A model generated the notes under the pieces. That model saw only the letters and a program-made list of their open reading frames with translations, was not told the DNA's origin and searched no databases. Position numbers and translations under genes: made by a program. Source: a virus (Duplodnaviria; Caudoviricetes). From it: a DNA stretch of 64,000 nt. The stretch is from IMG/VR virus record IMGVR_UViG_3300025137_005045; one strand, given 5' to 3'. This document shows, in pieces, positions 13,052-58,910 of the stretch (position 1 is its first letter; every line of letters starts with the position of its first letter).

Positions 13052-14272
13052 ATGGATACTTTTTTTCTTGGCATTACACTTTTTACTTTGATTGTGTTGT
13101 CACTTGTAACGATAATTATTTTTGCTCGAAGTCAACTTGTCCAATCAGGTGAAGTTAATATTACTATCAATGGCGAAAAAAATATAAAAGTGCCTGCTGG
13201 TGGAAAGTTACTACAGGCCTTAGCTGGAGAAAAATTATTTGTTCCATCAGCTTGTGGAGGTGGTGGTACTTGTGCTCAGTGTAAGGTTAAAGTTCATTCA
13301 GGAGGAGGATCCATTCTCCCAACTGAAGAAGGACATATCAGTAAACGAGATGCGTCTTGTGGAGATAGGCTGTCATGTCAGGTAGCAGTAAAGCAGGACA
13401 TGGAAATTGAAGTACCTGAGGAAGTTTTTGGAGTCAGAAAGTGGGAATGTAAAGTATTAAGTAATGATAATGTTGCTACATTTATTAAAGAATTAATTAT
13501 AGAGCTCCCCAAAGGTGAAGATGTAAATTTTAAAGCAGGTGGATATATTCAAATTGAAGCACCTAGCTATAAACTTTCATATAAGGACTTTGATATTGGG
13601 AAGGAATATCACGAGGATTGGGATAGATTTAAGATATGGGATGTTACCTCTGAGGTAAATGAACCAATTGAAAGAGCATACTCTATGGCAAATTATCCTG
13701 AAGAAAAGGGTATAGTAATGCTAAATGTTCGAATTGCAACTCCACCTCCAGGTTCATCTGGAATTCCAGCTGGAAAAATGTCTTCTTATATTTTTAATTT
13801 GAAAAAGGGTGATGCAGTTACTATATCAGGACCCTTTGGTGAGTTCTTTGCACGTGAAACCAAAAAAGAAATGATTTTTATTGGTGGAGGTGCTGGTATG
13901 GCACCAATGAGAAGTCTTATTTTTGATCAGTTTAGGAGAATAAAATCTGACCGAAAAGCATCATTCTGGTATGGAGCGAGATCGAAAAAAGAAATGTTTT
14001 ATGTCGATGATTTTGATCAGATTCAAAAAGATAATGAAAACTTTTCTTGGCATGTTGCTTTGTCCGATTCACTTCCGGAAGATAAATGGAAAGGGCATAA
14101 GGGATATATTCATAATATACTTTTTGAACAGTATTTAAAAGATCATCCAGCTCCAGAGGATTGTGAGTACTACCTATGTGGGCCACCTATAATGAATCAA
14201 TCAGTGGTTAATATGTTAATAGATCTGGGAGTCGATCGTGAAGATATTTTACTTGATGATTTTGGTGGGTAG
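13052..14272 (+). CDS. nqrF: Na+-translocating NADH:quinone oxidoreductase subunit F
   Basis: N-terminal TM anchor; [12 protein letters not shown] 2Fe-2S motif; RAYSMAN; [11 protein letters not shown]; YLCGPP; C-terminal LDDFGG. Confidence 0.97.
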
Positions 14273-14295
14273 TTGAATATAAGGAAAAATTTAAA

Positions 14296-14550
14296 ATGAA
14301 TACAAAAGTATTAAGATTTACAGCCTCATGGTGCGAGCCATGTAAGGCATTAGCAAAAACAATTGAAGACGCTGATATTGAATTACCAATTGAAGTTATT
14401 GATATAGACAAAGAAGCCTCTAGAGCTATGAAATTTCAAATACGCTCTGTACCTACAATAGTTATTGTTGATGAGAACGGTGAGGAACTTCGACGACAAA
14501 TCGGAATGATGACATTGTCACAGTTTGAGCATTTTGTTAAAAATGTTTAG
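14296..14550 (+). CDS. Thioredoxin
   Basis: WCEPC active site; IRSVPT. Confidence 0.9.
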   Translation: MNTKVLRFTASWCEPCKALAKTIEDADIELPIEVIDIDKEASRAMKFQIRSVPTIVIVDENGEELRRQIGMMTLSQFEHFVKNV

Positions 14551-14555
14551 TTGCT

Positions 14556-14574
14556 AATCATGATAATCATTATG
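14556..14574 (+). promoter_or_regulatory. Fur-box-like site upstream of pqqA
   Basis: AATCATGATAATCATTATG matches 16/19 of GATAATGATAATCATTATC. Confidence 0.5.
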
Positions 14575-14603
14575 TTTTTTAATTAATTATATGTTATTAT
14601 TAT

Positions 14604-14698
14604 AATAAGTAATAGCAGTAGCAACTGTTGTTACTTGAAGCAGATCTCAAATTGGACTTGTGGTAACACTCTCCAATGATTTGGTTAGCCGACTTATT
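14604..14698 (+). promoter_or_regulatory. Structured 5' leader of pqqA (candidate cis-regulatory RNA)
   Basis: Stems AGTAGCAA/TTGTTACT, CAAAT-TGGA/TCCAA-ATTTG with inner GTG-GTAA-CAC, outer AATAAGT/ACTTATT. Confidence 0.4.
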
Positions 14699-14726
14699 AA
14701 AAAACTTTTTATAAAGGACTATTATT

Positions 14727-14798
14727 ATGTGGACTAAACCTCAAGCAACAGAAATGCGTTTTGGTTTTGAAGTAACTATGTACGTAATGAACAAGTAA
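14727..14798 (+). CDS. pqqA: PQQ precursor peptide PqqA (23 aa), not in ORF track
   Basis: MWTKPQATEMRFGFEVTMYVMNK with the E-x-x-x-Y core; SD AAAGGA; own terminator. Confidence 0.95.
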   Translation: MWTKPQATEMRFGFEVTMYVMNK

Positions 14799-14852
14799 TT
14801 GTTTGTTAGTATATAAAACTTTAAACTAGCATTACACTGTTTAAAAATTTAG

Positions 14853-14878
14853 AAAGCACTCATTTATGGGTGCTTTTT
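14853..14878 (+). terminator. Rho-independent terminator after pqqA
   Basis: AAAGCACTC-N6-GGGTGCTTT plus T run. Confidence 0.85.
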
Positions 14879-14988
14879 ATTTGACCAACAAATATACATT
14901 ATATTATAATATGAGCAAGTATTCTATAAATACTTTTACTAGTTCACAAGACTAGTAATTTTTAAAAATCCCAAAAGGAGAAGAAAAA

Positions 14989-15141
14989 ATGTCAGTAGAA
15001 ACAAAAATAGACTGGAATGAAGAAGATAAAGAAGCAAAAGAAGATAAAGAAATGACAGCTAAAAAACAGAGTGAAGAATTTTCTAAATCTAAATCAGAAG
15101 AAATGGCAAGAAGAGTTGTCGCTTTTAGTGACTGCGGTTAA
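14989..15141 (+). CDS. Small acidic peptide (50 aa), not in ORF track
   Basis: TATAAATA at 14925, SD AAGGAG; ends VAFSDCG. Confidence 0.6.
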   Translation: MSVETKIDWNEEDKEAKEDKEMTAKKQSEEFSKSKSEEMARRVVAFSDCG

Positions 15142-15162
15142 TATTAACAACTAGATAAAATT

Positions 15163-17214
15163 ATGCCTACAAAATTACTGACCAAGGTGTTAGTTTCACC
15201 CTGGACAGCTCTTATTACTCTCACGATCATATTGTACATAGGCGTTCAACAACCTCAATTCATTGAAAGTGTTAAGTTAAGATACTTTGATACCTTAATC
15301 ACAAGCCAACCAGAACAACAAACAACTATATCAACAGTTAACATTGACGAATCCGCATTAGAAAAATATGGACAATGGCCTTTTAGTCGTGATATCTACG
15401 CAGACATAATTAAGGACTTGTATGAACGTGGTGCTGGACTAGTGGTATTCAATGTGCTTATGCCTGAACAGGATAGACTGGGCAAAGATTCAGTGCTAGC
15501 TAAAACAATGGAAGAATATCCAGTTGTACTTCCGAACTATGGTAGTGATAAAACAAAGAATATGCCACGTAATCCCGGTGCTGTTTCGATAGGTGACCCT
15601 GAAGGCAAAGTAGTGGAGTATGATGGCATTGTGGCAAGTATACCTGAACTAGAAAATCTAGCTTACGGTACAGGTATCGTAACAACATTCCCTGAAGTAG
15701 ATGGCGTTACTCGTAGATTGCCAATGGTCATTAAGAGTGGAGACACACTATATCCAAGTATGGGTTTAGAAGTTCTACGTATACTAGCAGGTGATCCTAG
15801 TTTCCAGATTAAATTCTCAGACATAGGTATTGATAAGTTACGTGTACCACAGTTTGGTATTTTATCAACAGACCCTATTGGGCGTGTATGGATTGATTAT
15901 CAGCAACGAGCTCAAGCATACAGTTTAACTGAACTTCCAAATACATTTGACAGTGGAATAGTTATTGTGGGTACGAGTGCTCCGGGTATTAGTAATCCAA
16001 TATCAACCAGTCGTGGCGAAGTATGGCCGCAAGATATGCAGGCCTCAGTGATAGCTACACTAGCAAGTGGTATCAATATCCAACGTCCAGACTGGGCATC
16101 GGGTAGCGAACTACTTGCTCTGGTAGTTTTAAGTATTATATTACTGTTTTTAACACGTTGGGTATATGTGGGCTTAGGAGTAGGAATAGTAGCACTAGCG
16201 GCGATTGTGCCGGTCACACAGTACCTTTATGCAACATATTTGTTCTTGTTTGATGCTACATTAATGTTAGGTGGATTAACAATTATACTGCTACATGCTT
16301 ACGGTGTTAAGTTTGTTTCAGAGTTCTTACAGAAGCAGGCAATCAAGAAACAGTTTGCTGGTTATGCGTCGCCGACGGTGGTTAAACTGCTACAAGAAAA
16401 TCCAGCATTAATTAAAGATGGTATGAAGCGGGAGATTTCAATTTGCTTTTCAGACTTACGTGGATTTACACCCTTAGGTGAAAGTTTTGGTGATGACGTA
16501 AAAGGGCTTACACAAATTATGAATAGCTATATGGATGCCATTACACAACCTATTCTGGATAGTAACGGTATGGTTATCAAGTATATTGGTGATGCTAGTA
16601 TGCACGTACATAATGCTCCCAAAGATGATCCTAATCATGCTAAAAGTGCTGTTCAAACAGGACTTAACATGATTGAAGCTGTTAGAAAGTTCAATGATAA
16701 AATTGTAGCCAAAGGCCGTCCACCGATAGGTATGGGTGCTGGCATCAACACCGGACTTGGATATCTAGGAGAAATGGGCTCAACAGCAAGACATAGTTAT
16801 GATGTACTAGGTGATGCTGTATCAACAGCGGCACGTATTGAAAGCAAGTGTAAAGAATACGGATGTTTATTATTGGTAGGTGAAGCCACTTACGATAAAA
16901 CCAAGGATGACTTCTTTTATCTGCAGGTAGACGAACTAGCAGTCAAAGGTAAAACAGTCGGCATTAGAATATACACAGTTTTAGATACTCCATTCAATGC
17001 GTATTACAATAGTCGAAAAAAACATCAAGAAATGTATGCATCATATCAAGCACAAGAGTTTGATAAAGCAATTAAAATGTGTCAAAATTTAAAGTCACAC
17101 TTTGAAGGACAAATGACTAGCTATTACGACATGTGGATTGAACGTTGCGAGTATATGCTAACACAAGATTTGCCTAAAGATTGGAACGGAGTCTTTATAG
17201 CAACTACCAAATAA
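15163..17214 (+). CDS. CHASE2-domain class III adenylate/guanylate cyclase
   Basis: NIDESALEKYGQWPFSR (CHASE2); TM block; FSDLRGFT, KYIGDA, GAGINTG, YDVLGDAVSTAARIES. Confidence 0.95.
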   Translation: MPTKLLTKVLVSPWTALITLTIILYIGVQQPQFIESVKLRYFDTLITSQPEQQTTISTVNIDESALEKYGQWPFSRDIYADIIKDLYERGAGLVVFNVLMPEQDRLGKDSVLAKTMEEYPVVLPNYGSDKTKNMPRNPGAVSIGDPEGKVVEYDGIVASIPELENLAYGTGIVTTFPEVDGVTRRLPMVIKSGDTLYPSMGLEVLRILAGDPSFQIKFSDIGIDKLRVPQFGILSTDPIGRVWIDYQQRAQAYSLTELPNTFDSGIVIVGTSAPGISNPISTSRGEVWPQDMQASVIATLASGINIQRPDWASGSELLALVVLSIILLFLTRWVYVGLGVGIVALAAIVPVTQYLYATYLFLFDATLMLGGLTIILLHAYGVKFVSEFLQKQAIKKQFAGYASPTVVKLLQENPALIKDGMKREISICFSDLRGFTPLGESFGDDVKGLTQIMNSYMDAITQPILDSNGMVIKYIGDASMHVHNAPKDDPNHAKSAVQTGLNMIEAVRKFNDKIVAKGRPPIGMGAGINTGLGYLGEMGSTARHSYDVLGDAVSTAARIESKCKEYGCLLLVGEATYDKTKDDFFYLQVDELAVKGKTVGIRIYTVLDTPFNAYYNSRKKHQEMYASYQAQEFDKAIKMCQNLKSHFEGQMTSYYDMWIERCEYMLTQDLPKDWNGVFIATTK

Positions 17215-17295
17215 AATAGTTACATTTATGTAACATATTGTTTTATATAAATAATAATAGTGGACAACTATACTAATGCCCACAAGGAGCATTAA

Positions 17296-17646
17296 ATGTT
17301 TAAGTCACTATTATTAATAATATTATTACTATTCACTGTCTCAGCAATTGCTGACAGTTCTAAAGTCTGTGTTCGAAATCAAGCCGGAGGCTTAATCGTA
17401 TTGACACAAGAAGCATGTCAAATTCCAATTGTCTCAAATAGTTTCCCATTTTACGGTTATGCTACTGAAGCTAACGGAACATTTCACGAAGGATGTTTTA
17501 ATATTCCTAAAATCGACGATGCTCAACAATCACCAGGTGTAAGAATTGTTCCTGTTGTAAACTTCATTGATGGAAATGACGGGGAAATAATTACATTTGA
17601 AGCTGAAGTGTTTAGGGCGGAATCTTGCCCAGTTTCATCTATTTAA
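17296..17646 (+). CDS. Hypothetical secreted protein
   Basis: Signal peptide; four Cys; late-type promoter upstream. Confidence 0.7.
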   Translation: MFKSLLLIILLLFTVSAIADSSKVCVRNQAGGLIVLTQEACQIPIVSNSFPFYGYATEANGTFHEGCFNIPKIDDAQQSPGVRIVPVVNFIDGNDGEIITFEAEVFRAESCPVSSI

Positions 17647-17694
17647 TGATCACAAGAAATTTAAAGTCAATGATTCCAAACAGTAAATATCATT

Positions 17695-17871
17695 ATGAAT
17701 AAAAAATATCAAGAATGGTCAAGAAATAATACTATAGGTTGGGTATCTAAAGAACCAATTACAGGAAAATTTGCTAGTGATCCTTGGGAAGGACAGTTCG
17801 GCTATAACAATGTTGGAGAATATGTTCAATACCGAAATGGTATCTGGACTAAAGTAAAAACATACAATTAG
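17695..17871 (+). CDS. Small hypothetical protein (58 aa), not in ORF track
   Basis: Clean ORF MNKKYQEWSR...KVKTYN filling the gap. Confidence 0.5.
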   Translation: MNKKYQEWSRNNTIGWVSKEPITGKFASDPWEGQFGYNNVGEYVQYRNGIWTKVKTYN

Positions 17872-18125
17872 CGTGTTTTTGTAGAAGCAATACTGTCTAT
17901 ATGTTTTTGTACATGATCAACAAGAGCATTAAGCTCATCAATTAAGCCCTGATCCATATAAGATCTGACTATCTGAGCTAACATTAATCCATTAAACTCA
18001 CTTAGTGAAATTTCATGATTGTCAATGAAGTCCATGGTTATCTCAGTAAGATCCTCTGCCATTTCTTCAACTTCGATCTGACTTAAATCGTCAAAGGATG
18101 GTTCTATATCGTCATCGTTTATCAT
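17868..18125 (-). CDS. Hypothetical acidic protein
   Basis: ORF track; coupled to the upstream gene. Confidence 0.6.
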   Translation of the reverse strand: MINDDDIEPSFDDLSQIEVEEMAEDLTEITMDFIDNHEISLSEFNGLMLAQIVRSYMDQGLIDELNALVDHVQKHIDSIASTKTR

Positions 18126-18439
18126 TAGTCTTCCTTTTTCTTTTCTTTTTTAATACTATCTTGTTTAATTGCTTCGTCGATAATTTCTTGTTTGTTTTCT
18201 TCTGATATTTCTTTACCACGAAGTTGAAGAACTGTATTTAATTTTTGGTTCAGCCTAATTAGATCATTATCTAACATACGAATACGATCAATTAATGCAA
18301 TTAAAGTTTTTTGTGCGTCACTTAGAATAGGTTTAACTTCTCGAGTAGCCCATATCCAAATATAATAGACAAAGTAACCTAAACCACATGCGGCCACTAT
18401 TGGGAATCCGTACTTTGAAATTAAATCTGCTATATCCAT
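18125..18439 (-). CDS. Small membrane protein (TM plus coiled coil)
   Basis: GFPIVAACGLGYFV; paralogue of 19182..19463. Confidence 0.7.
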   Translation of the reverse strand: MDIADLISKYGFPIVAACGLGYFVYYIWIWATREVKPILSDAQKTLIALIDRIRMLDNDLIRLNQKLNTVLQLRGKEISEENKQEIIDEAIKQDSIKKEKKKED

Positions 18440-18568
18440 GCTAATACTTATTCAGAGTTTTTGGGTGTGATTATTATTTCAGCATTACCCAATTGACATA
18501 CCATTCTAAACTTATTGCCCACAGTTGTATCGTAACAATGCTAACAACTATTAGTATAAGAAATTTTT

Positions 18569-18682
18569 TCATTCGTCTTCAAATTTTTCTTCTTCAAAAG
18601 GTTTTACAAAGAATACAACAAAAATTATAAACAATAGGGTAACAATAGGAGCGGCAAATAATACCCATAACTCCCAAGACAT
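18569..18682 (-). CDS. Single-TM peptide (37 aa)
   Basis: MSWELWVLFAAPIVTLLFIIFVVFF; start abuts the DUF1353 stop. Confidence 0.55.
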   Translation of the reverse strand: MSWELWVLFAAPIVTLLFIIFVVFFVKPFEEEKFEDE

Positions 18683-18683
18683 T

Positions 18684-19151
18684 TTACTTATCTGCGTCGG
18701 TAGGTTTAATTGAAGACTTTCCAAACCACTTAACAGCATTATAACATGCCCATTTCTTCCAAGCTGGTATTGCTGGTTCAGCATCATTCATTGCATCTCT
18801 AAAGACTCTGTCTGATGTTTTCTTAGCTTCAAATGCAGTAGCATCATCACCGTTATGATAGCGGAATTTTCTAATTTTAGCATAAAGAACATCATGTATA
18901 ACAGCGGCTCTGGCACAATCAAAAGGTGCTATAAAAAACCATGCAACTCTCGGTACTGATGCCATATCTGTTTTTAATCCTGCTGGTGCAGTAATCTTAC
19001 AACTACGACCATCAATTGGTGCCTTTACTGCTTTAAGTGTTCCAACTTCATGATCAGTTAGATGATCATCTTCATACACTAGCTTGGTATTCAATACCCA
19101 TTGTCTTGGTGGATGGTATTTTGCGTCCATTAATCCGTTGAACTTACTCAT
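18684..19151 (-). CDS. DUF1353-family protein
   Basis: ITAPAGLKTDMASVPR, AAVIHDVLY, SDRVFRDAM. Confidence 0.85.
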   Translation of the reverse strand: MSKFNGLMDAKYHPPRQWVLNTKLVYEDDHLTDHEVGTLKAVKAPIDGRSCKITAPAGLKTDMASVPRVAWFFIAPFDCARAAVIHDVLYAKIRKFRYHNGDDATAFEAKKTSDRVFRDAMNDAEPAIPAWKKWACYNAVKWFGKSSIKPTDADK

Positions 19152-19181
19152 TTTATTGCTCCTATTTTTTATGTTTGTTTA

Positions 19182-19463: not shown

Positions 19464-19565
19464 TTCAGAACCCCCGTTCAGTGGTCTTGTTTATTATATG
19501 CGTATTTAACCAATACATTCAGCTACTTAATATACGTATTTAATTATTAACAAAATTTGAAAAGT

Positions 19566-20753: not shown

Positions 20754-20842
20754 AATGATATTTACTTAAATTAATTTAGACCGTATAATAAAACAATGAT
20801 AAGTACAAGATAATTATAGTAGTATATTAAAGGATATCACAT

Positions 20843-34393: not shown

Positions 34394-35524
34394 ATGAAGA
34401 ATAACAACAAACATATCTGCTTTCATCCTTGGGCAGGAATAGATATTAATGCACAACAAGAATTTAAACCTTGTTGTAAGATTGACGAATCATTTGGAAA
34501 CACGCTTGAAGAGTATCTTAATAATCCTGAACTAGCTAATATGAAAGAGCAGTTTCTTAAAGGAAATAAGCCTGTAGAATGTCAAAGATGTTGGCAAGAT
34601 GAGGATGCTGGTCTCGCTAGCAAGAGGCAACTAGACTGGGAACAAGTCTATAATAAACAGGTTCCCAAAGATGTTGGCATCCGTGTTGCTATGTTAACAT
34701 TTGGGAATAGCTGTAATCTTAAGTGTCGAACTTGTGGTAGTTTCGCATCAAGTAGTTGGATCAAAGAAGAAAAAAAATTATTTCCAGAGCACACAATTTA
34801 TCCACACAATAGTTACTATAAAGATATTAACTATCAGTCTGAGATAGCAGAGATAGCCAAAAAAGTAACATATGTTTATATTGCAGGAGGGGAGCCTTTC
34901 TTAAGCACAGATTTAAAATATCATTCAGACTTTTTAGATTTATTGTTGGATCGTGCCGAACAAATAAGTCTGAAATATATAACAAATTGCACAGTAACTC
35001 CTAGTGATGAAATGTGGGAGAAATTTAAACGATTTAAGAATATAGAATTTCATTTAAGTATAGATGGTGTTGGATCAGTTTATGAGTATACACGATATCC
35101 TGCTAATTGGGAGAAAGTTCTAGAGAATATTAAAAGATATCAATCTTTAGCCAATAGTACTCCAAATTTTAAAATAAGTATAGGGCATACTGTTAGCGTG
35201 TTAAATGTTTATTATCTACCTGATTTTTTAATTTGGTGTTTGAAAAACAAGTTAGGCAAACCTTATCTAGGTATGGTATATGAAGAACCTCATTATAATA
35301 TTAGAAACTTGCCATTGGAAATAAAAAATATCATAAAAGATAGACTAAGACTATATTCAGTAAATGAAGTGGTTTCATTTATGCAAGAAAAAGATGATCA
35401 ACCCGAACAGTTTCGTAAATTTTTAAAGTATACCCAAATATTAGATCAAGAACGAAAATCTACAATGGAACAAAGTTTACCAGAATTTTATAATATGTTA
35501 ATGGATCACGGCATAAAATATTAA
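34394..35524 (+). CDS. Radical SAM protein with N-terminal SPASM/twitch-like Cys cluster
   Basis: CNLKCRTC; GGEPF; CFHPW..CC. Confidence 0.9.
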   Translation: MKNNNKHICFHPWAGIDINAQQEFKPCCKIDESFGNTLEEYLNNPELANMKEQFLKGNKPVECQRCWQDEDAGLASKRQLDWEQVYNKQVPKDVGIRVAMLTFGNSCNLKCRTCGSFASSSWIKEEKKLFPEHTIYPHNSYYKDINYQSEIAEIAKKVTYVYIAGGEPFLSTDLKYHSDFLDLLLDRAEQISLKYITNCTVTPSDEMWEKFKRFKNIEFHLSIDGVGSVYEYTRYPANWEKVLENIKRYQSLANSTPNFKISIGHTVSVLNVYYLPDFLIWCLKNKLGKPYLGMVYEEPHYNIRNLPLEIKNIIKDRLRLYSVNEVVSFMQEKDDQPEQFRKFLKYTQILDQERKSTMEQSLPEFYNMLMDHGIKY

Positions 35525-37302: not shown

Positions 37303-38601
37303 ATGTCAAATAAAAGTGTATTTTGTAATACGCCTTGGTATGAGGCACATATCTACTGGAATGGCGATCTAGGTATTTGCTGTCAGGAAAGTCACAAATT
37401 ATATTCATCAGAAGAAAGCCAATATAATATTAAAAATATGTCCTTGAAAGATTGGTTTAATAGTGAGCCAGTAAGAAAATTAAGGAGAGACATACTTAGT
37501 AACGAAAGATTTGATCTATGTAGTATGTGCTATAAGGAACAAGAGGTTGGTGGTACCAGTCGACGACATCGATCAAATCAAAAAAGTGCAATTTTTACTG
37601 AATCAGCATTTGATCAGAGTTATCAACAAAGTCCTGGACTAATATATTTTGAACACAGTCGTAATCATAACGGATACTCAAATACACTACCAATTGATCT
37701 ACATATTGATCTAGGTAACTATTGTAATCTTGCTTGTAAAATGTGTTGGGCCGGAGCTTCAACAAAAATTGCTACGCAACATGTAAAATGGGGAATACAA
37801 GAAGATAAAAAATATCTAAAAAATGACTGGACAAAAGATAAGGTCGTTTGGAACAGATTTTTAAATGACCTATTAGAGATTCCTAAATTAAAGAATATAC
37901 ATTTAATGGGGGGAGAAACTCTACTTACTAAAAAGTTTGAGGAAATGGTTGACTTTATGATTGCTCATAAACGATTTGACCTTAATTGGAGTTTTGTCAC
38001 TAACGGAACAGTATTTAATCAGCCATTGATGGATAAACTGAAACAATTTCAGAGAGTTGGTATTGAAGTTAGTATCGAAACTGCATCACCACATAATCAA
38101 TATGTACGTCAAGGTACAGATAATAGTGTAGTAATGGAAACCATAAACAAATATTTAGAATATAACAATGAATATTTTTCAGTTACTTTACGTCCTGCTA
38201 TTTCAGCATTAACTGTTGGCTACTATGATACTCTATTAGAGTTTGCTATCAAAAAGAAATTGCTTATAAAAAGTTTAATTGTTTCTACTCCAGCCTATTT
38301 AGATATTAACAGTTTACCACTGTCAGTTAAACACGAATATCAAAAAAAATATCGTAAATTATTAGAAAAATTTAAAGAAATAGATAGCTCAAGTGAATTT
38401 AATCAAAGCGATACTGCCAATTATCAACAAAGTATTTTAATGCAAATTAATCAGGTAATAACATTATTAGAAAGAAATCACGATAATAAAAAATTTAAAG
38501 ATTTGGTCAAGCATTGTCAACGATGGGATCAAGAACTTGGTCTTGACGCATTAGAATTGTATCCAGAGTTGGGAGAAGAATTTAAAAAACATGGATACTA
38601 G
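37303..38601 (+). CDS. Radical SAM protein with N-terminal SPASM/twitch-like Cys cluster
   Basis: CNLACKMC; MGGE; CNTPW..CC. Confidence 0.9.
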   Translation: MSNKSVFCNTPWYEAHIYWNGDLGICCQESHKLYSSEESQYNIKNMSLKDWFNSEPVRKLRRDILSNERFDLCSMCYKEQEVGGTSRRHRSNQKSAIFTESAFDQSYQQSPGLIYFEHSRNHNGYSNTLPIDLHIDLGNYCNLACKMCWAGASTKIATQHVKWGIQEDKKYLKNDWTKDKVVWNRFLNDLLEIPKLKNIHLMGGETLLTKKFEEMVDFMIAHKRFDLNWSFVTNGTVFNQPLMDKLKQFQRVGIEVSIETASPHNQYVRQGTDNSVVMETINKYLEYNNEYFSVTLRPAISALTVGYYDTLLEFAIKKKLLIKSLIVSTPAYLDINSLPLSVKHEYQKKYRKLLEKFKEIDSSSEFNQSDTANYQQSILMQINQVITLLERNHDNKKFKDLVKHCQRWDQELGLDALELYPELGEEFKKHGY

Positions 38602-48544: not shown

Positions 48545-48706
48545 ATGACAAATTGGATTAAAAAACGTTGGGCTGAAAGAAGTTCACAAAGCGGCGTAGC
48601 ACTAGTAGCATTTGGAGTTATTGCTATTGTATTCACACCATTTGTATCATTTGCGGCTTATGCGGCAATTATCTACGGTGGATATCAGATTTGGAAGAAA
48701 GGATAG
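48545..48706 (+). CDS. Small membrane protein (53 aa), not in ORF track
   Basis: SD AGGAG; two hydrophobic segments. Confidence 0.65.
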
Positions 48707-48707
48707 T

Positions 48708-49040
48708 ATGATTACCGTTACTGAATCAGCAATAAAAAAATTAAAAGAAATAATAGCTGAAGAAGACGACCCAAACTTAAAAGTAAGAATGTTTGTTAGT
48801 GGTGGCGGGTGTTCAGGAATGCAATATGGTTTTACTCTCGAAGAGGAACCAGCAAACGAAGATGATTTTGATCTAGAAGTAGCTCCAGGTGTACATATGT
48901 TAGTAGATTCAATGAGCGGACAATATGTGCAAGGTGCTGAAGTTGATTTTGCTGAATCTCTGCAAGGTAGCCAATTTGCTATTAAAAATCCTAACGCAGA
49001 AACAACATGTGGATGTGGATCCAGCTTTAGTCCAGGTTAA
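48708..49040 (+). CDS. erpA: Fe-S cluster insertion protein ErpA/IscA family
   Basis: [11 protein letters not shown]; [14 protein letters not shown]; start at 48708 rather than 48612. Confidence 0.93.
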
Positions 49041-52000: not shown

Positions 52001-52886
52001 TAACATAAACCCAAACAACATTGACAGTGCATACCCTGTAGCTGGTCAAGACAACGATTCACAAGGCTTTCGTGATAACTTTACGAATATAAAAAATAAT
52101 TTTACAGAAGCTGAAACTGAAATTGACGATTTACAGGCTAAGGTAATAGTTAAGTCAGCACTTACAGGAACAACTGTAGACAATGACTTTAGTGATACTG
52201 TAGTAAAAGCGGCTAAGGTACAGGACCTTAGTGAAACTGCTGTCATACTTGGTACCACTGGCGGAACGCTAACACTTAATCACAACACTGGACACTATTA
52301 TACTGTAACTACAAATGCATCAGCAACACTAGCATTTACAAACTTTCCACCAAGTGGTGCAAAAGGTAGGGTACAACTAGCAATCACAGTTTCTAACGTG
52401 GCACATACACTAACACTACCATCGGCAGTATCAAGGGGTGTTGTAGGTATTCAGGGTATAGCTTCAAATGTAATTACATTTGGTGCAACCGGTACATACA
52501 TATTTGAATTTACAACTAGCGATAGTGGAACTCTTATCCACATTGAAGAATTATCCAGACCAAGAAATTCATTTGATAATCCAATTTTTCTAGGATCATC
52601 AGAGGATGTTGCAAATGCAGGTGCTATCAGTTTAACTACAGCGGCATCACACTTTTCCACAGGTGGAGCAGAAACAGCTACATTGGCCGCAGGTGCTGAT
52701 GGACAAGTTAAAACATTAATGATGGCCGCCGACGGTGGTAACATGGTTGTAACTGTAACTAATGCAGGTTGGAAGACAACAGGCACTGGTACAATTACTT
52801 TTGGAGACATTGGAGATGCTTGTACACTACAGTATATTAATTCAAAATGGTATGCAGTTGGAGTTAATGGCGTAGCATTTGGATAA
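51993..52886 (+). CDS. Virion structural protein
   Basis: YPVAGQDNDSQGFRDNF; Thr/Gly-rich; coupled to the previous gene. Confidence 0.65.
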   Translation: MASNINPNNIDSAYPVAGQDNDSQGFRDNFTNIKNNFTEAETEIDDLQAKVIVKSALTGTTVDNDFSDTVVKAAKVQDLSETAVILGTTGGTLTLNHNTGHYYTVTTNASATLAFTNFPPSGAKGRVQLAITVSNVAHTLTLPSAVSRGVVGIQGIASNVITFGATGTYIFEFTTSDSGTLIHIEELSRPRNSFDNPIFLGSSEDVANAGAISLTTAASHFSTGGAETATLAAGADGQVKTLMMAADGGNMVVTVTNAGWKTTGTGTITFGDIGDACTLQYINSKWYAVGVNGVAFG

Positions 52887-52898
52887 TACCAAAATAGT

Positions 52899-52944
52899 TT
52901 GACACCGGCTCCTAGTTACTATATAATAACATATAGACTAGGAG
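52899..52944 (+). promoter_or_regulatory. sigma70 promoter nested in a 14-bp anti-SD hairpin upstream of mazG
   Basis: TTGACA 52899, TATAAT 52922; CTCCTAGT/ACTAGGAG plus CTATAT/ATATAG. Confidence 0.75.
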
Positions 52945-52950
52945 TTTTTA

Positions 52951-53364
52951 ATGACTGAACAGATTGATTTAAACAAGTATCAAGATTTCGTTCAAGAAGT
53001 AACCAGTGACGAAAGTAACAGTAATAAATCACTATGCGATAGAGTAACACAATTAACTGATGAAACAGATGTTAATGTATCATTACTAATGACAGCCGCT
53101 ATTGGTTTATCTGCTGAATGTGGTGAGTTTGCTGAACTACCAAAAAAAGTAATATTTCAAGGTAAAGAACTCAATGAAGATACTGTATTCCATATGAAGC
53201 GTGAACTAGGTGATATACTTTGGTATTGGGCAAATGCTTGTAGAGCATTGAACTTGAATCCAAATGATGTTATACTAGAAAATATTAACAAACTAAAAAG
53301 CCGTTACCCTGGTGGTGAGTTCGACGCTTTTTATAGTGAAAATAGGAAAGACGGAGATTTATAA
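52951..53364 (+). CDS. mazG: MazG-like nucleoside triphosphate pyrophosphohydrolase
   Basis: GLSAECGEFAE..KK; RELGDILWY; NINKLKSRYP. Confidence 0.9.
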   Translation: MTEQIDLNKYQDFVQEVTSDESNSNKSLCDRVTQLTDETDVNVSLLMTAAIGLSAECGEFAELPKKVIFQGKELNEDTVFHMKRELGDILWYWANACRALNLNPNDVILENINKLKSRYPGGEFDAFYSENRKDGDL

Positions 53365-53597
53365 TGGAACACCCATTGATTGGTGATTTAAAAGATCTTA
53401 ATCTAGAGCAACTTCAAGGTAAGCTCAGCGAAATAAACAAAAAATTAAGTTTTAGTTATAAAACTAACAACCAGGCACTAATAAATCAATTACAGTTGGT
53501 GCAATCCAGTTATCAAACAGAGTATAATCGTAAAATGAAAGAACTAATGCCTAAAGATGATGATGACGAACACAATGATAAAATTGATATATCGTGA
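53364..53597 (+). CDS. Hypothetical coiled-coil protein
   Basis: ORF track; coupled. Confidence 0.7.
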   Translation: MEHPLIGDLKDLNLEQLQGKLSEINKKLSFSYKTNNQALINQLQLVQSSYQTEYNRKMKELMPKDDDDEHNDKIDIS

Positions 53598-54199
53598 ATA
53601 TACGTTTAGCTAAAGATTATAATTTACTAGCATCAGTGTATTGGGACGAAGAAATAATGAGTAATTATTATTCAATAAGTTTAGGTATGCTTACTAATAG
53701 TGAAAGCAGTAGTGAACAAAATATAGCTTTTGGTCGTGTTGCTAGTTATATTGGAGATATTTTACAATCAGGTGTGTTTATTAGTCAGTCTGAAAAAGAA
53801 CAAATACATCAACTACAAAATGCTAAAATGAAAACGATAATATTACCCGAACGACCATTTGACCAAAGTGTAGCAATTATGTTATTCTGTAAGTTAAATG
53901 CAATTTGTGAAGATAAATTGTTAATTACTGATATCACTGTTACCAGTTCACTTAGTGATAACGTTAGATATATGATTGATGCTGAAGATCAATTTGGTCC
54001 ATTTGGTGAAGATGGATGGTGGCACGAATCTAATCCAGATTGGTTTGATCACACCATTGGCGAAGATAACACCAAAGTTATTAAAATGGATGAAAGATTA
54101 ACCTGGGAAAATGTTAATCTAAATTGGGAAGAAAAAGAAGAAAAAGAAGAAAGTATTAACAATGTTGTTAAAGGAAATTTTAATAAACAAGATGATTGA
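53594..54199 (+). CDS. Hypothetical protein
   Basis: ORF track; coupled. Confidence 0.7.
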   Translation: MNIRLAKDYNLLASVYWDEEIMSNYYSISLGMLTNSESSSEQNIAFGRVASYIGDILQSGVFISQSEKEQIHQLQNAKMKTIILPERPFDQSVAIMLFCKLNAICEDKLLITDITVTSSLSDNVRYMIDAEDQFGPFGEDGWWHESNPDWFDHTIGEDNTKVIKMDERLTWENVNLNWEEKEEKEESINNVVKGNFNKQDD

Positions 54200-54698
54200 A
54201 GACCGTTACGGAAGAATAGCATTAGAACAAGATGATATCATTGATGTTATGATGACAGATCCTGACGTAAAAATAAAAAAAGCATTGGTTAAAGATTGTG
54301 ACCTAACTCAAGTACAGGATCTAATAGATGAAGTATATGATTTTCAACAGTATACTAATTTAGATATACCAGTAGCTGAATTTGATGCACAAAATCAAGT
54401 TGCTTGGCATATGCCTAACGAATACAAAGACTTAGATATTGCAAAATGGTTAATTGATCAATGTGAAACACAACCTGAACTACAAAGAGTTGGTGAAGAG
54501 CTACTGCTGTTCCAAGAACGTGATTTATTTGATCTGTTGAAATATCTTAAATATTTGGTAGACACTATGAGAAAAAACAAGGTCATATGGGGAGTAGGTA
54601 GGGGTAGTTCAGTAGCAAGTTATGTATTATATCTAATTGGTATTCATAAAGTGGATTCGATGTATTATGATTTACCCATTGACGAGTTCCTTAGATAA
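54192..54698 (+). CDS. Stand-alone DNA polymerase III alpha (DnaE) fragment
   Basis: WGVGRGSSVASYVLYLIGIHKVD matches G.GRGS..GS.V.Y.LGIT.VD; ends before the PDID catalytic motif. Confidence 0.8.
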   Translation: MIEDRYGRIALEQDDIIDVMMTDPDVKIKKALVKDCDLTQVQDLIDEVYDFQQYTNLDIPVAEFDAQNQVAWHMPNEYKDLDIAKWLIDQCETQPELQRVGEELLLFQERDLFDLLKYLKYLVDTMRKNKVIWGVGRGSSVASYVLYLIGIHKVDSMYYDLPIDEFLR

Positions 54699-54728
54699 GT
54701 ATGTATATAATGATTATGGAGAAATATT

Positions 54729-55277
54729 ATGGCAAACAAGCGTAGGACAGCAAGCGGTGGCATGGTTGATCTTGGTGCTTTAATACTGTCGCAAGATAAT
54801 ACAAGGTCAGTTGGTAATATGGGAGTTAATGCTCGTGGGGATAGAATTAACAGTCGTAACGAAGTAGTTGAAACGAGGAATGAAATAGTGCAAACACAAT
54901 ATGATAGAGCTCACTCTAATGTAGTTCAAGATGCTCCAATACCTACCAGTGCTAAACATGCAGAAGAACTAGCACGACAAGAAGAAAAAAATACTAAAAG
55001 GGCAAAAGCAGTTACTCCTAAAGTTAAAAAGACAAAAGCAAAAGCAAAAGCACCAGAGGTTAAAGAAGAAATACTTCCAGTTGCAAAGGAAACTGTAATT
55101 GAAAAACCTATAATTGAAAAACCAGTAACACAAGAATCAGTTGTGTCTGTTAATAAAAATACAGTACCACAAGGTGGATTGGCGGCGGCAATTGCTAAAG
55201 CAAAACAGATTAAAGAAGAAGAAAGAAAAACACCTAGACAACAGGAACAAGAGAAAAAAGGAGTTACAAAACTATAA
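54729..55277 (+). CDS. Hypothetical Lys/Glu-rich protein
   Basis: GNMGVNARGD motif; SD GGAG. Confidence 0.7.
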   Translation: MANKRRTASGGMVDLGALILSQDNTRSVGNMGVNARGDRINSRNEVVETRNEIVQTQYDRAHSNVVQDAPIPTSAKHAEELARQEEKNTKRAKAVTPKVKKTKAKAKAPEVKEEILPVAKETVIEKPIIEKPVTQESVVSVNKNTVPQGGLAAAIAKAKQIKEEERKTPRQQEQEKKGVTKL

Positions 55278-55645
55278 TGGCTTACGGTGCGGCTTGGGAA
55301 ATTAAATCTATTAGACCATTACACGATCAAGTGATTGTACGTGATATGGATTTTAAAGAAAGAGTAACTAGTTCAGGAATCATTGTACTTGGTGATGATG
55401 GAAAAAGTGAAGGCATTAGACCAAGATGGGGTCAAGTGTATGCAGTTGGTCCAGAACAAAAAGACTATCAAGTTGGCCAATGGATTATGATTGCACACGG
55501 TCGTTGGACACGAGGAGCAGAGGTTGAAATCAATGGAGAAGAATTTACTATACGTAAAGTAGACCTCAATGACATATTACTAGTCAGTGATGAAAAACCA
55601 GAAGATGACACAATGTCAACAGTTGAAATGCCAGAACGTAATTAA
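55277..55645 (+). CDS. groES: Co-chaperonin GroES-like
   Basis: IRPLHDQVIV..TSSGII..G.V.AVGP. Confidence 0.85.
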   Translation: MAYGAAWEIKSIRPLHDQVIVRDMDFKERVTSSGIIVLGDDGKSEGIRPRWGQVYAVGPEQKDYQVGQWIMIAHGRWTRGAEVEINGEEFTIRKVDLNDILLVSDEKPEDDTMSTVEMPERN

Positions 55646-55719
55646 ATATAACCTAAATTGATTGCAATTTTTAAATATCTTTGCTATAATATAAAAAACT
55701 TTATCAATAAGGGATCTAA

Positions 55720-56637
55720 ATGAAACAACTGTGGACTGAGAAGTATCGACCTGATAACGTAGACGGATATGTATTCCGTGATGGTGCACAAAAAGAACAA
55801 GTAGCACAATGGATTAAAGAAAAAACTATTCCGCACTTACTGTTTAGTGGTGCACCTGGTGTAGGTAAGACTACACTGGCAAAAATCTTAATCAAACAAC
55901 TAGGTATAGATGATTATGATGTATTAGAGATTAATGCATCAAGAGAAAACTCTGTAGATACTATCCGTGATAAGATATCTGGTTTTGTAGAAACTATGCC
56001 TTTTGGTGACTTTAAAATTGTACTGTTGGATGAGGCTGATTACATAAGTCCAAATGGTCAAGCGGCACTTCGTGGGGTTATGGAAACATATGCACAGACA
56101 GCAAGATTTATGTTAACTTGTAACTATCCAAACAGGGTTATACCAGCACTACATTCTAGATGCCAGGGCTTTCATATTGAGAAGATTGATCAAAATGAGT
56201 TTACAGCACGTATGGCTAAAGTAATGCTAGATGAAGAAGTTAAGTTTGAATTAGACATATTAGATACCTATGTAAAAGCAACGTATCCAGACTTGCGTAA
56301 ATGCTTAAACATCTGTCAGATGAATTCAAATGACGGTACATTAAGCAAACCACACGGTGATGAAGGTGGCAGTCAAGAGTATAAACTGGAAGTGGTTACC
56401 TTGTTTAAAGCAGGAAAGATCAAAGAAGCAAGGCAAATGCTATGCAAGAATGCACGTCCTGAGGAGATGGAAGAAATGTTTCGTTGGATGTATGACAATA
56501 TTGATTTATGGGGCACGACAGAAGAACAACGAGATGCCGCAATCATTGTGATTAGAAATGGATTAGTTAATCATGCTATGGTAGCAGATCCTGAAATCAA
56601 CTTATCAGCAACACTGTGCGAGCTTACACAATTATGA
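55720..56637 (+). CDS. Clamp-loader (RFC/gp44-like) AAA+ subunit
   Basis: WTEKYRP, GAPGVGKTT, EINAS, LDEAD, SRC. Confidence 0.93.
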   Translation: MKQLWTEKYRPDNVDGYVFRDGAQKEQVAQWIKEKTIPHLLFSGAPGVGKTTLAKILIKQLGIDDYDVLEINASRENSVDTIRDKISGFVETMPFGDFKIVLLDEADYISPNGQAALRGVMETYAQTARFMLTCNYPNRVIPALHSRCQGFHIEKIDQNEFTARMAKVMLDEEVKFELDILDTYVKATYPDLRKCLNICQMNSNDGTLSKPHGDEGGSQEYKLEVVTLFKAGKIKEARQMLCKNARPEEMEEMFRWMYDNIDLWGTTEEQRDAAIIVIRNGLVNHAMVADPEINLSATLCELTQL

Positions 56638-56667
56638 TAACAAAAATAGATTCAATAAATAGTCATA

Positions 56668-57576
56668 ATGAGGAAAATAGATTTAAAAATAGTAGAAATA
56701 CTAGTTGGCTGGAAATGCAACTTGGCATGTCGAGACTGTTCCTCGGGTGTTGACATACTCAGAAATAAAATAGATCAAGAACCTGAATTAGATAATCTAA
56801 TTAAATCCATTGATGATTTATCCAAATATGTTAATAATGTTACTGACTTGTTTACTGTTACAGGTGGAGAGCCTATGCTTTATTGGGACATAGTCAAACC
56901 GGTTGTTAGACACATAAGAAAAAAGTTTCCTCTTGCTAAAATTATGATTAATTCTAATGGAAGACTATTACACAAACGTAAAGATGAATTAATAGATTTT
57001 TTAAAAGAAATACAAAATATCGCTATAGGATTATCCAATCATGCAAGCGAGTTTCCAAATGATCCTGCAGGACAGGCATATTATAATGATTTAGATAAGT
57101 TTTTTAGTGACAGCAGACTATATAAAATCCACTCAATGCACTATGACATTCCGGATAATGAAGTTAATTTCCACTGGGGTACCCATTCAGATGGATTCAT
57201 AGCTCAATGGAAAAGAGTTGGAGATAAATTAAAGCCGTTTGCTACAAAAAATCCGGCCAAGTCATTTGAAAACGGGTGTGTTAGCCCCATCTGTGCTTCA
57301 CTGAGTGATGATTCAAAACTTTATAAATGTTTTAAATTACAAGTGTTACCAACTATACTAAAAAGAATAGATCAACTTGATGATCCAGATTGGCAACCTT
57401 ATCTTACATATCAACCCATTGATATTTCCAAAGACAATGTCTGGAATGATATATATAAATTTGCTGAAGAAGAAGGCAACCCGATTTCTGTTTGTGATAT
57501 GTGCCCTGATAACAAAGTTATTGGAATATCTAGGGTACCTCACACCAAAGAAAATATTTTTACAAAGAGGAAATAA
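56668..57576 (+). CDS. Radical SAM protein
   Basis: CNLACRDC; TGGEP; C-terminal C...CDMC. Confidence 0.88.
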   Translation: MRKIDLKIVEILVGWKCNLACRDCSSGVDILRNKIDQEPELDNLIKSIDDLSKYVNNVTDLFTVTGGEPMLYWDIVKPVVRHIRKKFPLAKIMINSNGRLLHKRKDELIDFLKEIQNIAIGLSNHASEFPNDPAGQAYYNDLDKFFSDSRLYKIHSMHYDIPDNEVNFHWGTHSDGFIAQWKRVGDKLKPFATKNPAKSFENGCVSPICASLSDDSKLYKCFKLQVLPTILKRIDQLDDPDWQPYLTYQPIDISKDNVWNDIYKFAEEEGNPISVCDMCPDNKVIGISRVPHTKENIFTKRK

Positions 57577-57833
57577 TGAGATACTTAGTAATTACCTATA
57601 TATTAAAACCTGATGGTCGTAGCGATGAAGCGGTGTCAGTTAAACAAAAATTAACTAATTATATTAATAATAATGCTAATATAATTATGGATTTTAAGGA
57701 AAAAAGAATATTAAAATCTCGTATGAATGAACCTATTCCTCGTGAGTGGAATGCTATCTATTATTACTTTGTAAATATCTATTCAGATATATTTAAAGCT
57801 CTTGAAGATGCAAATCCCCAAGAGCCCAAATAA
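57576..57833 (+). CDS. Hypothetical protein
   Basis: ORF track; coupled. Confidence 0.7.
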   Translation: MRYLVITYILKPDGRSDEAVSVKQKLTNYINNNANIIMDFKEKRILKSRMNEPIPREWNAIYYYFVNIYSDIFKALEDANPQEPK

Positions 57834-58559
57834 CTAGTCCTTATATAAAGTTAATACTGAATCAATAATTGGATGTCGTTGGATGTCTTGGCCAGTAAAC
57901 TGATTAATAGCCATTCCGTTAACATTTTGCTGTGACAACCGATCGCAAAGATCTAATAGACCATTATTGCTACCGTGTTTGTCTGCTTGTTCTATGTCAC
58001 CTGTTACTACTATTTTACTGCCTTCTCCTATCCTGGTTAATAACATTTTAACTTGTGCTGGTGTTGCATTCTGCATCTCATCAGCCACAATCCATGCGTC
58101 CTTAAATGTTCGTCCTCTCATAAATGCTAAAGGTGATATCTCAATGATTTGTTCTTCCATCATGTGAGCTATTTCTTTTGCGTTATAGTACATCCTCAAA
58201 ACATCAAATAAAGGTCGAGTCCACGGTTCCATTTTTTGTTCCAGTGTTCCTGGTAAAAATCCGTGTTTCTCATCCTCAACTCCTACTGCTGGTCTTGTTA
58301 ATACTATACGTTCGCATTCATGATTTCTAAATGCTTTGATAGCGGCAATCATTGCTAGATATGTTTTACCAGTACCTGCTGGACCGTGCCCTATTACTAT
58401 ATGTGTGGATTTGTTTAACAAGTTTAAGATATACGTTTCTTGATTCCTACTTTTTGGAATCAATTCTATATGTCTTGATTTTATAGCCTGTTCAAAGTTT
58501 ATTGTGTTATGAAGTTCTTGATGGTTATTGTTACGTTTTGCTCTTCTTGGTTTTGACAA
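57834..58559 (-). CDS. phoH: PhoH-family ATPase
   Basis: GPAGTGKT, LTRPAV, PLAFMRGRTF, DEMQN, GDIEQ; SD AGGAG supports TTG 58559. Confidence 0.95.
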   Translation of the reverse strand: MSKPRRAKRNNNHQELHNTINFEQAIKSRHIELIPKSRNQETYILNLLNKSTHIVIGHGPAGTGKTYLAMIAAIKAFRNHECERIVLTRPAVGVEDEKHGFLPGTLEQKMEPWTRPLFDVLRMYYNAKEIAHMMEEQIIEISPLAFMRGRTFKDAWIVADEMQNATPAQVKMLLTRIGEGSKIVVTGDIEQADKHGSNNGLLDLCDRLSQQNVNGMAINQFTGQDIQRHPIIDSVLTLYKD

Positions 58560-58709
58560 AAGCGTCTCCTTTGTGGAATAATACATGAAGTAGTCCTCTA
58601 TTAAACTACAAATGTATTTACGATGTAATCAGGATGGTTAAACTGCTCACTCAATCACGATCTTTGTCGACTAAATACTGGGCTATCCTGCAATTCTATA
58701 ATTAACAAC

Positions 58710-58910
58710 ATGACTACTTTTTTATTAGTTTTTATTTTTTTAGTTGGTTTCATCTTATTGATGTCGCTTGGAGTAATTTTTATGGGTAAAAACATCAAAG
58801 GAAGTTGTGGTGGATTAAATGCTATCTCTAATTCAGATAAATGTCTGGTTTGTAATAAAGATATTGATCCAAATAATCCATTAAAAAGTAAACTTGATTG
58901 TAAAAAGTAA
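58710..58910 (+). CDS. nqrM: Na+-NQR maturation factor NqrM (DUF539)
   Basis: TM helix then K.IKGSCGGL and further Cys residues. Confidence 0.85.
   Translation: MTTFLLVFIFLVGFILLMSLGVIFMGKNIKGSCGGLNAISNSDKCLVCNKDIDPNNPLKSKLDCKK

Follow-up and report, generated by a model that had tools for sequence, protein, structure and literature searches.

Why would a tailed phage carry two separate pieces of a respiratory enzyme of its host? This question is raised by a 64,000-nucleotide (nt) stretch of the IMG/VR virus record IMGVR_UViG_3300025137_005045 (Duplodnaviria; Caudoviricetes), and the window below means this whole stretch at its full length. In an earlier note made from the letters alone, a full-length nqrF and an nqrM-like gene, both belonging to the Na+-translocating NADH:quinone oxidoreductase (Na+-NQR), had been placed far apart among phage genes. 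Herein, these two genes are followed up by computational analysis. Both read as host-type genes taken from a methylotroph of the OM43 clade, nqrF appears to be held under purifying selection, and the pair may well support the host Na+-NQR during infection.

NqrF is the flexible electron-input module of Na+-NQR, and electrons are passed from NADH to FAD, to its 2Fe-2S cluster, and then to the intramembrane 2Fe-2S cluster of NqrD/E (PMC12174285). NqrM is needed to install this intramembrane cluster, according to Vibrio work cited in PMC12174285 and PMC6209661. Na+-NQR has only these two iron-sulfur centres, and one of the two genes found in the phage is linked with each.

Identity and integrity of the phage NqrF and NqrM

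In the profile search, the nqrF product reached 674.6 bits against the TIGR01941 nqrF equivalog, whose cut-off is 295, and covered model positions 2-405 of 405 (the coordinates of all features are collected in Table 1). The Pfam domains Fer2, FAD_binding_6, and NAD_binding_1 were found, and a membrane helix at the N terminus is followed by a ferredoxin domain for the 2Fe-2S cluster and by an FNR-like domain for FAD and NADH. The anchor helix spans residues 5-23 with a Kyte-Doolittle mean of 2.75 over 19 residues. Residues 1-406 align end to end with the V. cholerae NqrF (8a1t_F, E 6e-190). The 2Fe-2S cysteine ligands C70, C76, C79, and C111 of the V. cholerae protein correspond to C68, C74, C77, and C109 of the phage protein, and these four cysteines are invariant across an alignment of 12 sequences. 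The RxYS motif (R208/Y210/S211), the segment G278-S288, and the C-terminal F404 are all invariant in the same alignment; from the V. cholerae enzyme we take them to be the FAD-binding motif, the NADH-binding motif, and the aromatic residue over the flavin, respectively. F352Y is the only substitution unique to the phage NqrF, and no lineage-specific remodelling was seen. The protein also scores against BenC/MmoC-type reductase models. By every sequence criterion applied, the 13052..14272 product reads as a genuine and intact NqrF.

The nqrM product was matched by PF04400 (NqrM, DUF539) with 29.7 bits against a gathering cut-off of 22, and the NCBIfam model search of the same protein gave no match. 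Its layout is a membrane helix (residues 5-23, Kyte-Doolittle 3.03) followed by GSCGG, CxxC, and a C-terminal cysteine. The cysteines C33, C45, C48, and C64 are kept in 99-100% of 121 homologues, and the protein is 85% identical to an NqrM that adjoins nqrA in a metagenome-assembled genome (MAG) of Methylophilaceae. For both genes, the coordinates in the earlier note proved exact, and its descriptions of a full-length NqrF and an NqrM-like protein are upheld by these scores, by the cofactor motifs and helix of the former, and by the helix and four cysteines of the latter.

Both genes are embedded in phage DNA

The window is gene-dense, lies mainly on one strand, and has about 35% GC throughout. 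Its source is a large uncultured marine myovirus with a contig of about 293 kb. A curli module of CsgF-CsgG-curlin-FecR-curlin-CHASE2/cyclase is common to the window, Methylophilales phage Melnitz, and Pelagibacter phage HTVC008M, and the cyclase of the window is 52.5% identical to that of Melnitz and 36% identical to that of HTVC008M. Ribosomal protein S21, HSP20, ClpX/ClpS, and DNA ligase are encoded just upstream, and the further phage genes include MazG, PhoH, Cpn10, a clamp-loader-like ATPase, a GH108 lysozyme, speD, ClpP, and UvdE, together with an NAD synthase. Melnitz and the pelagimyophages share with the window phage the CsgF/CsgG-FecR-cyclase module as well as S21, PhoH, MazG, and GH108, and the host of Melnitz is also an OM43 bacterium. 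However, only 13 of the 95 window open reading frames (ORFs) match Melnitz, and the phage contig is about twice the Melnitz genome. The window phage is therefore a larger and distant relative, with a gene content typical of marine T4-like pelagimyophage/Melnitz phages.

The distance between nqrF and nqrM is 45.6 kb. When host NqrA-E and ApbE were used as tblastn queries, no match was obtained in the window and its phage flanks (about 82 kb, from about -8 kb to +74 kb). The phage DNA examined thus carries two of the eight Na+-NQR genes (nqrABCDEF, apbE, and nqrM), and these two are unlinked. In the phage, nqrM stands between PhoH and an ORF named orf184. These two neighbours are 353 nt apart in the window, and about 120-165 nt separate them in two contigs of related jumbo phages, both without nqrM. 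A candidate promoter sits 128 nt upstream of nqrM, and it is a lead only, as the regional site count is not above chance. Promoter and terminator scans gave counts no higher than the shuffled expectation. The T4 late box TATAAATA is under-represented, and none was found upstream of nqrF or nqrM.

Phage genes were found on both sides of nqrF and of nqrM in independent assemblies. For nqrF, the junctions were found again in ENA ERZ27249043 (a 74.5 kb contig), ERZ27249049, and Logan SRR5247217, and the nqrM junctions recur in ERZ27249049, JGI 3300001472, JGI 3300025120, and Logan SRR5247217/20. Both genes are present at the window spacing in the 87.8 kb contig of JGI 3300001472, where the NqrF protein is identical and the gene has six synonymous differences. 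One contig of an independent DNA run bridges desaturase-nqrF-thioredoxin. An assembly artefact, with host nqr reads wrongly joined into a phage contig, could be imagined because the long tracts that are identical between the host and phage copies could confuse assemblers. However, the same junctions are present in at least five independent assemblies from different pipelines (ENA, JGI, and Logan), similarity to the host does not reach beyond 10-13 nt from either ORF, and nqrF occupies the same site in a second phage variant, L258 (also seen in run X3), where the details of the junctions differ. A chimera was rejected as extremely improbable, and the isolation of each gene among phage genes without nqrA-E or apbE, as claimed in the earlier note, stands.

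Host origin and separate capture of the two genes

Among 5.8 billion sequences, the closest NqrF proteins belong to OM43-type Methylophilaceae, and among named genomes, those of Methylophilaceae such as HTCC2181 come nearest. The order of the OM43 host locus is nqrM (divergent), nqrABCDEF, and CBS, and the gene pair of the phage represents the two outermost genes of the nqrM-nqrABCDEF part. The OM43-type contigs L014, L016, and L178 were used as the reference host lineage. The phage nqrF is 96.1% identical in nucleotides and 98% in amino acids to L014/L178, with 48 nucleotide and 7 amino-acid differences; Q28, Q31, and Y352 (F352 in the host) are among the residues that mark the phage allele. 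The nqrF homology runs from 10 nt upstream of the ATG to the stop codon. The phage nqrM is 100% identical in nucleotides to L014/L016 over the 157-158 nt included in those loci. At the protein level, the phage NqrM equals a 68-aa cluster protein over all of its 66 residues, the last two codons being missing in the phage copy; the homology begins 13 nt before the ATG and ends within the last two codons.

Since the homology is limited by the ORF edges, each nqr gene was acquired, or trimmed, as a bare ORF. The sequences indicate that nqrF and nqrM were taken separately from one OM43 (Methylophilaceae) lineage, which agrees with the separate retention of two genes proposed in the earlier note. 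Capture of the entire nqr locus in one event, with later deletion, was considered and rejected on the basis of the 45.6 kb distance, the clean intergenic insertions, and the ends of homology at the ORF edges. The near identity to the host (96% and 100% in nucleotides) implies that the nqr genes are recent or continually refreshed captures. Among the other cellular-type phage genes, the identity to the OM43 orthologues is about 63-73% for the S-adenosylhomocysteine (SAH) hydrolase, 62-66% for the AhpC of L258, and 57-59% for the ErpA-like iron-sulfur carrier. From its low identity, the ErpA-like carrier would be an older resident unrelated to the nqr pair. The carrier gene lies 9.7 kb from nqrM, and the link by which the earlier note had joined erpA to the nqr genes in an Fe-dependent repair kit comes down to co-occurrence.

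By these sequence relationships, the phage host would be a methanol-using member of the OM43-clade Methylophilaceae. In three OM43 genomes (HTCC2181 and two MAGs), ApbE was found in all three, and NuoD (TIGR01962) had no match in any of the three. The lack of NuoD implies that complex I is absent and that Na+-NQR is the only energy-coupled NADH:quinone oxidoreductase detected there (the type II NADH dehydrogenase NDH-2 was not searched for).

Purifying selection and mosaic exchange in nqrF

The phage variant L258 (positions 1419-3732, ENA ERZ25073835) carries nqrF at the insertion site of the window and made a comparison between phage alleles possible. Between the window and L258, the cyclase is 95.8% and the thioredoxin 82% identical in amino acids. 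Upstream of nqrF, L258 has a 106-nt stretch where the window has 19 nt, and an AhpC peroxiredoxin gene is inserted between nqrF and thioredoxin. A 30-aa Cys-rich ORF precedes nqrF in L258. The two phage NqrF proteins have 18 residue differences, all of them conservative.

The ratio of nonsynonymous to synonymous substitution rates (dN/dS) of nqrF was 0.060 between the window phage and the nearest host L014, 0.075 between L258 and L014, and 0.03-0.04 between hosts. Between the two phages the ratio was 0.060 (dS 0.33; 7.3% nucleotide difference), a comparison into which host tracts introgress. All eight variable sites among the near-identical phage nqrF copies are synonymous, but they are clustered and do not represent eight independent events. 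These values suggest that nqrF is under strong purifying selection, and the relaxed selection against which the earlier note had set its reading was not seen for nqrF. The nqrM gene shows zero variation against the host and among the phage copies, so that selection on it is not measurable.

In a nucleotide tree of nqrF, the phage copies are placed within a single OM43 sub-clade and are paraphyletic. The site patterns explain this paraphyly. The segment at nt 66-360 is common to both phage alleles against the host, while at nt 500-1200 the window allele sides with the host and differs from L258, and two tracts of 200 nt are identical to the host. The mosaic pattern of sites has a Fisher p of 1e-9. 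This mosaic reads as the signature of repeated homologous exchange between the phage and host alleles.

Distribution in related phages, databases, and transcripts

Neither nqrF nor nqrM was found within 10 kb in any of the 80 cyclase-anchored IMG/VR relatives, and Melnitz and HTVC008M are also without both genes. A related phage, L274 (IMGVR_UViG_3300031695_001027), has a 50-aa nqrM-derived ORF at 6001-6153, inside its curli module between FecR and PA14-curlin. The CsgF, FecR, and curlin of L274 are 73-78% identical to those of the window. In this ORF, the membrane helix, GSCGG, and CxxC are preserved; it has an internal deletion of three residues, is without the fourth cysteine, and overlaps the start of the next gene by ATGA. 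By its sequence and position, L274 shows what would be an independent nqrM capture at a different site, that is, recurrent capture, possibly with partial decay.

Among the cultured phages of INPHARED, no close NqrF and no NqrM was found. The INPHARED record MT838854.1 was rejected as a source of a phage NqrF, being a 4.8 kb unannotated faecal "Bacteriophage sp." record with 50% identity that may be cellular DNA, and the remaining NqrF-like matches were reductases of the BenC/AntC type that came from assemblies with a phage label. When NqrF and NqrM were each scanned as single proteins against IMG/VR, nothing was found. Motif-based scans of IMG/VR gave the nqrM fragment of L274 and one partial NqrF (L273, positions 1-801, 52% identity); the latter was rejected as a phage gene since it is partial, at a contig end, and probably on a cellular flank. 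All 80 best NqrF loci of the JGI metagenome scan were host operons. The search for nqr genes elsewhere, named as a check in the earlier note, thus has an answer in part: the rest of the phage genome is covered for about 82 kb of DNA, and the viral databases add the L274 fragment and the partial, probably cellular NqrF.

Full-text literature searches that combined nqr genes with phage or auxiliary-metabolic terms found nothing relevant, and the pelagimyophage and Melnitz papers (PMC9004378, PMC7029224) do not mention nqrF or nqrM. In the metatranscriptome runs X19 and X20, the nqrF-like contigs were the host operon, with loose ends matching the 3' end of nqrE and the host downstream region. No phage-junction RNA contig for nqrF was seen among the metatranscriptome contigs, an absence that is not evidence of silence.

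The cargo island around nqrF

The nqrF gene is part of a cargo island. The PA14-curlin and cyclase genes that border this island are adjacent to each other in Melnitz and L274 and are 1.3 kb apart in L018. The island contains a fatty-acid desaturase, a hexapeptide transferase, SAH hydrolase, Gcw_chp, an outer membrane protein, a glutamine riboswitch, a UDP-glucose dehydrogenase fragment, a short desaturase, nqrF, thioredoxin, and pqqA. In ERZ27249049 (L263, L002), one contig ends and another begins exactly at the left edge of the island, in the PA14-curlin gene, which suggests population-level variation at the island boundary. A 71-aa ORF (10914..11129) directly follows the glutamine riboswitch.

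Table 1 Features of the window discussed in this study, with their positions and the basis of each assignment
Feature	Position	Strand	Basis
Cargo island, 9.4 kb, between the PA14-curlin gene and the CHASE2-cyclase gene	5774..15162	+	gene content
Longer fatty-acid desaturase, 348 aa	5984..7030	+	PF00487 match
Glutamine riboswitch	10864..10913	+	Rfam RF01739, 60.1 bits vs gathering score 35
Short membrane desaturase-like gene with His boxes, 249 aa, immediately before nqrF	12147..12896	+	NF049918 DesA family
Nucleotide homology tract to host OM43 nqrF, 96.0% over 1231 nt	13042..14272	+	blastn vs L014, L178
nqrF, 406 aa, full-length Na+-NQR subunit F	13052..14272	+	TIGR01941, Pfam, structure alignment
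Thioredoxin, 84 aa, directly downstream of nqrF	14296..14550	+	PF00085, 50.6 bits
pqqA, 23-aa pyrroloquinoline quinone (PQQ) precursor peptide, E-x-x-x-Y motif	14728..14799	+	read from sequence
A-type Fe-S carrier (ErpA/IscA-like)	48612..49040	+	PF01521 Fe-S_biosyn
Candidate sigma-70-type promoter (TTGACA, 18-nt spacer, TG-AATAAT)	58553..58582	+	consensus scan, 11/12 matches, extended -10
nqrM, 66 aa, Na+-NQR maturation factor	58710..58910	+	PF04400

The short desaturase scored 131 bits against the NF049918 DesA family, which is under the cut-off, and its homologues in nine related phages (30-34% identity) are PF00487 FA_desaturase proteins. Its gene is separated from nqrF by 155 nt without translational coupling. 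A short fatty-acid desaturase adjoins an AhpC-TSA gene and a CMD/AhpD-like gene in one related phage (L084:12058-14095) and is near a Rieske oxygenase in another (L043:13193-16148). Desaturase and redox genes at the cyclase hot spot look like a recurring lipid/peroxide redox module. Three radical-SAM genes were also found in the window, at 37303..38601 (+), 34394..35524, and 56668..57576, and one of them has a SPASM domain.

The pqqA gene is a previously unannotated ORF located 450 nt downstream of nqrF, and it is 81-92% identical in nucleotides to several pqqA loci in three OM43 genomes. Very high depth was observed at 14726-14807 in every DNA and RNA run compared. Searches for a tRNA or an Rfam element gave no explanation for this deep stretch, and the stretch is pqqA.

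Discussion

The identity and intactness of the two genes, their host origin and phage context, the purifying selection on nqrF, and its mosaic exchange are what was observed. With modest confidence, we favor the reading that phage nqrF and nqrM support the host Na+-NQR during infection, a role like that of psbA. The phage would express a host-type NqrF and a host-type NqrM while infecting OM43. NqrF would supply a fresh membrane-tethered electron-input subunit, and NqrM, as a small membrane factor, would install the 2Fe-2S centre of NqrD/E. The supply of both would keep or raise the Na+-NQR activity as host gene expression fails, so that NADH re-oxidation and the sodium-motive force would persist and drive the making of new phage. 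In the same way, the cofactor supply of methanol dehydrogenase would be maintained by the nearby pqqA.

Expression of the genes, incorporation of the proteins into the host complex, and a benefit to the phage are what we infer from several observations. The exchange that keeps the phage NqrF host-like fits a protein docking onto the host NqrC/D/E. As Na+-NQR is the only coupled NADH:quinone oxidoreductase found in the host, it is through this enzyme that NADH re-oxidation and the sodium-motive force would continue. By our own estimate, two captures from one 7-gene system among about 1,300 host genes would occur by chance at about 0.5% per pair. With the nqrF dN/dS of 0.06, the separate bare-ORF insertions, and the independent nqrM capture in L274, the selection for a Na+-NQR-related role suggested in the earlier note is still the best reading of the data.

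Several points weigh against such support of the host enzyme. The matching metatranscriptome contigs carry the host operon only. NqrM is thought to act in the assembly of new complexes, and because the phage DNA examined is without nqrA-E and apbE, a benefit would need a continued supply of host subunits or a repair of existing complexes. The nqrM copy of L274 is truncated to 50 aa without the fourth cysteine, which could be decay, and the invariant nqrM of the window may be a very young passenger. The hypervariable island and the desaturase and redox neighbours of nqrF suggest another use. The lack of both genes in the 80 cyclase-anchored IMG/VR relatives and in Melnitz means that the trait is narrow and dispensable for the wider phage group.

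One such use is that NqrF was repurposed as a stand-alone, membrane-anchored, NADH-dependent reductase of the ferredoxin type, which would feed the phage di-iron desaturase(s) and perhaps oxygenases or radical-SAM enzymes. Bacterial desaturases, such as DesB of P. aeruginosa and DesA3 of M. tuberculosis, use a dedicated FAD/2Fe-2S oxidoreductase. In both phage variants nqrF directly follows the His-box desaturase-like gene, a second fatty-acid desaturase is within the same island, and short-desaturase homologues in related phages cluster with peroxiredoxin/AhpD-like genes, with AhpC itself present in L258. The score of NqrF against BenC/MmoC-type reductase models and the descent of NqrF from FNR-type monooxygenase reductases (PMC12174285) would also suit such a function. 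However, the nine related phages with a short desaturase have no nqrF within 10 kb, and the 155-nt gap shows no translational coupling. The phage NqrF is 98% identical to the host subunit with only F352Y being unique, and it is held host-like by recombination. In addition, nqrM is left unexplained, for no role of this gene is known outside Na+-NQR, and its capture happened twice within the phage group. We regard the repurposed reductase as unlikely, and it is similarly unlikely that the virus built a new electron-transfer chain (desaturase-nqrF-(ahpC)-thioredoxin) from a Na+-NQR piece and kept nqrM for a separate purpose.

The genes could instead be neutral or transient passengers, namely host DNA that a jumbo phage with room to spare in its capsid took up recently by illegitimate capture, has so far not purged, and draws no benefit from. 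Such captures would account for the 100% nucleotide identity of nqrM over 157 nt and the 200-nt nqrF tracts identical to the host, for the absence of the genes from other relatives and cultured phages, for the hypervariable island with one assembly breaking at its edge, and for the truncated nqrM copy of L274. They fit poorly with a dN/dS of 0.06 between phage nqrF alleles that differ by 7.3% in nucleotides (dS 0.33), which implies long maintenance. Both ORFs are also cleanly trimmed to their ribosome-binding regions, the two genes are fixed across the assemblies of several samples and studies, and both captured genes serve one enzyme; even the 50-aa ORF of L274 keeps the helix, GSCGG, and CxxC and is ATGA-coupled to the next gene. 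A passenger origin is therefore considered improbable. Isolated NqrF oxidises NADH with artificial acceptors, and the phage protein might act as an uncoupled NADH oxidase or diaphorase that lowers NADH/NAD+, frees NAD+ for nucleotide and one-carbon (C1) metabolism, or alters signalling by reactive oxygen species and redox state. The phage NAD synthase, the thioredoxin, and the AhpC of L258 suggest attention to NAD and peroxide balance. Such an activity is quite doubtful, since NqrF has no specific sequence change toward it, nqrM is again unexplained, and uncontrolled NADH oxidation would waste energy that the phage needs.

Comparison with known systems

The psbA and psbD genes of cyanophages encode labile core subunits of photosystem II, show intragenic exchange between host and phage, and are presumed to sustain the energy supply during infection. 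Similarly, the gene found here is a host-derived single subunit of a membrane energy complex on a T4-like phage, with purifying selection and mosaic exchange. In contrast to psbA, the complex is the respiratory Na+-NQR of a methylotrophic heterotroph and not a photosynthetic one, and the assembly factor NqrM is carried as well. The phage and host alleles are also far closer (96-100% in nucleotides), only one narrow phage lineage has the trait, and its expression and function are presumed.

The amoC gene in thaumarchaeal viruses and the pmoC gene in methanotroph phages are further single-subunit auxiliary metabolic genes of membrane enzymes. T4-like phages of Methylophilaceae in Lake Baikal carry methanol dehydrogenase, pqqA, and SAH hydrolase (PMC7678222), and the window phage likewise carries pqqA and SAH hydrolase, both of them in the nqrF island. 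What these phages share with the case here is one piece of a key energy enzyme, or a cofactor precursor, of a C1- or ammonia-oxidising host. However, neither a respiratory NADH dehydrogenase subunit nor NqrM is part of the amoC, pmoC, and Baikal reports, and the Baikal paper is without nqr (PMC7678222). Compared with the cellular Na+-NQR of V. cholerae (8a1t, 7xk3), the phage NqrF is full-length with all ligands, and the phage NqrM has the helix and four cysteines of its family. In the donor host, nqrF is linked with nqrA-E and nqrM, whereas the phage has two of the eight genes, unlinked. Phages that carry one host-derived subunit of an energy complex are a well-established kind of finding, and nqrF/nqrM looks like a new case of this kind.

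Phages are well known to support host energy conversion in photosynthesis through psbA and in the oxidation of ammonia and methane through amoC and pmoC, and no report was found for a phage-borne gene of a respiratory NADH dehydrogenase or of sodium bioenergetics. The near-identity of the genes to one host lineage provides a precise phage-host link. Beside psbA, the mosaic nqrF is a second system in which the host and phage copies of a core energy gene can be seen to recombine. Since OM43, a methylotroph abundant in coastal waters, has a minimal genome that apparently encodes no complex I, Na+-NQR may be a bottleneck that the phage must protect. The choice by the phage of the two genes tied to the iron-sulfur centres hints that these centres limit the lifetime or the assembly of Na+-NQR in vivo.

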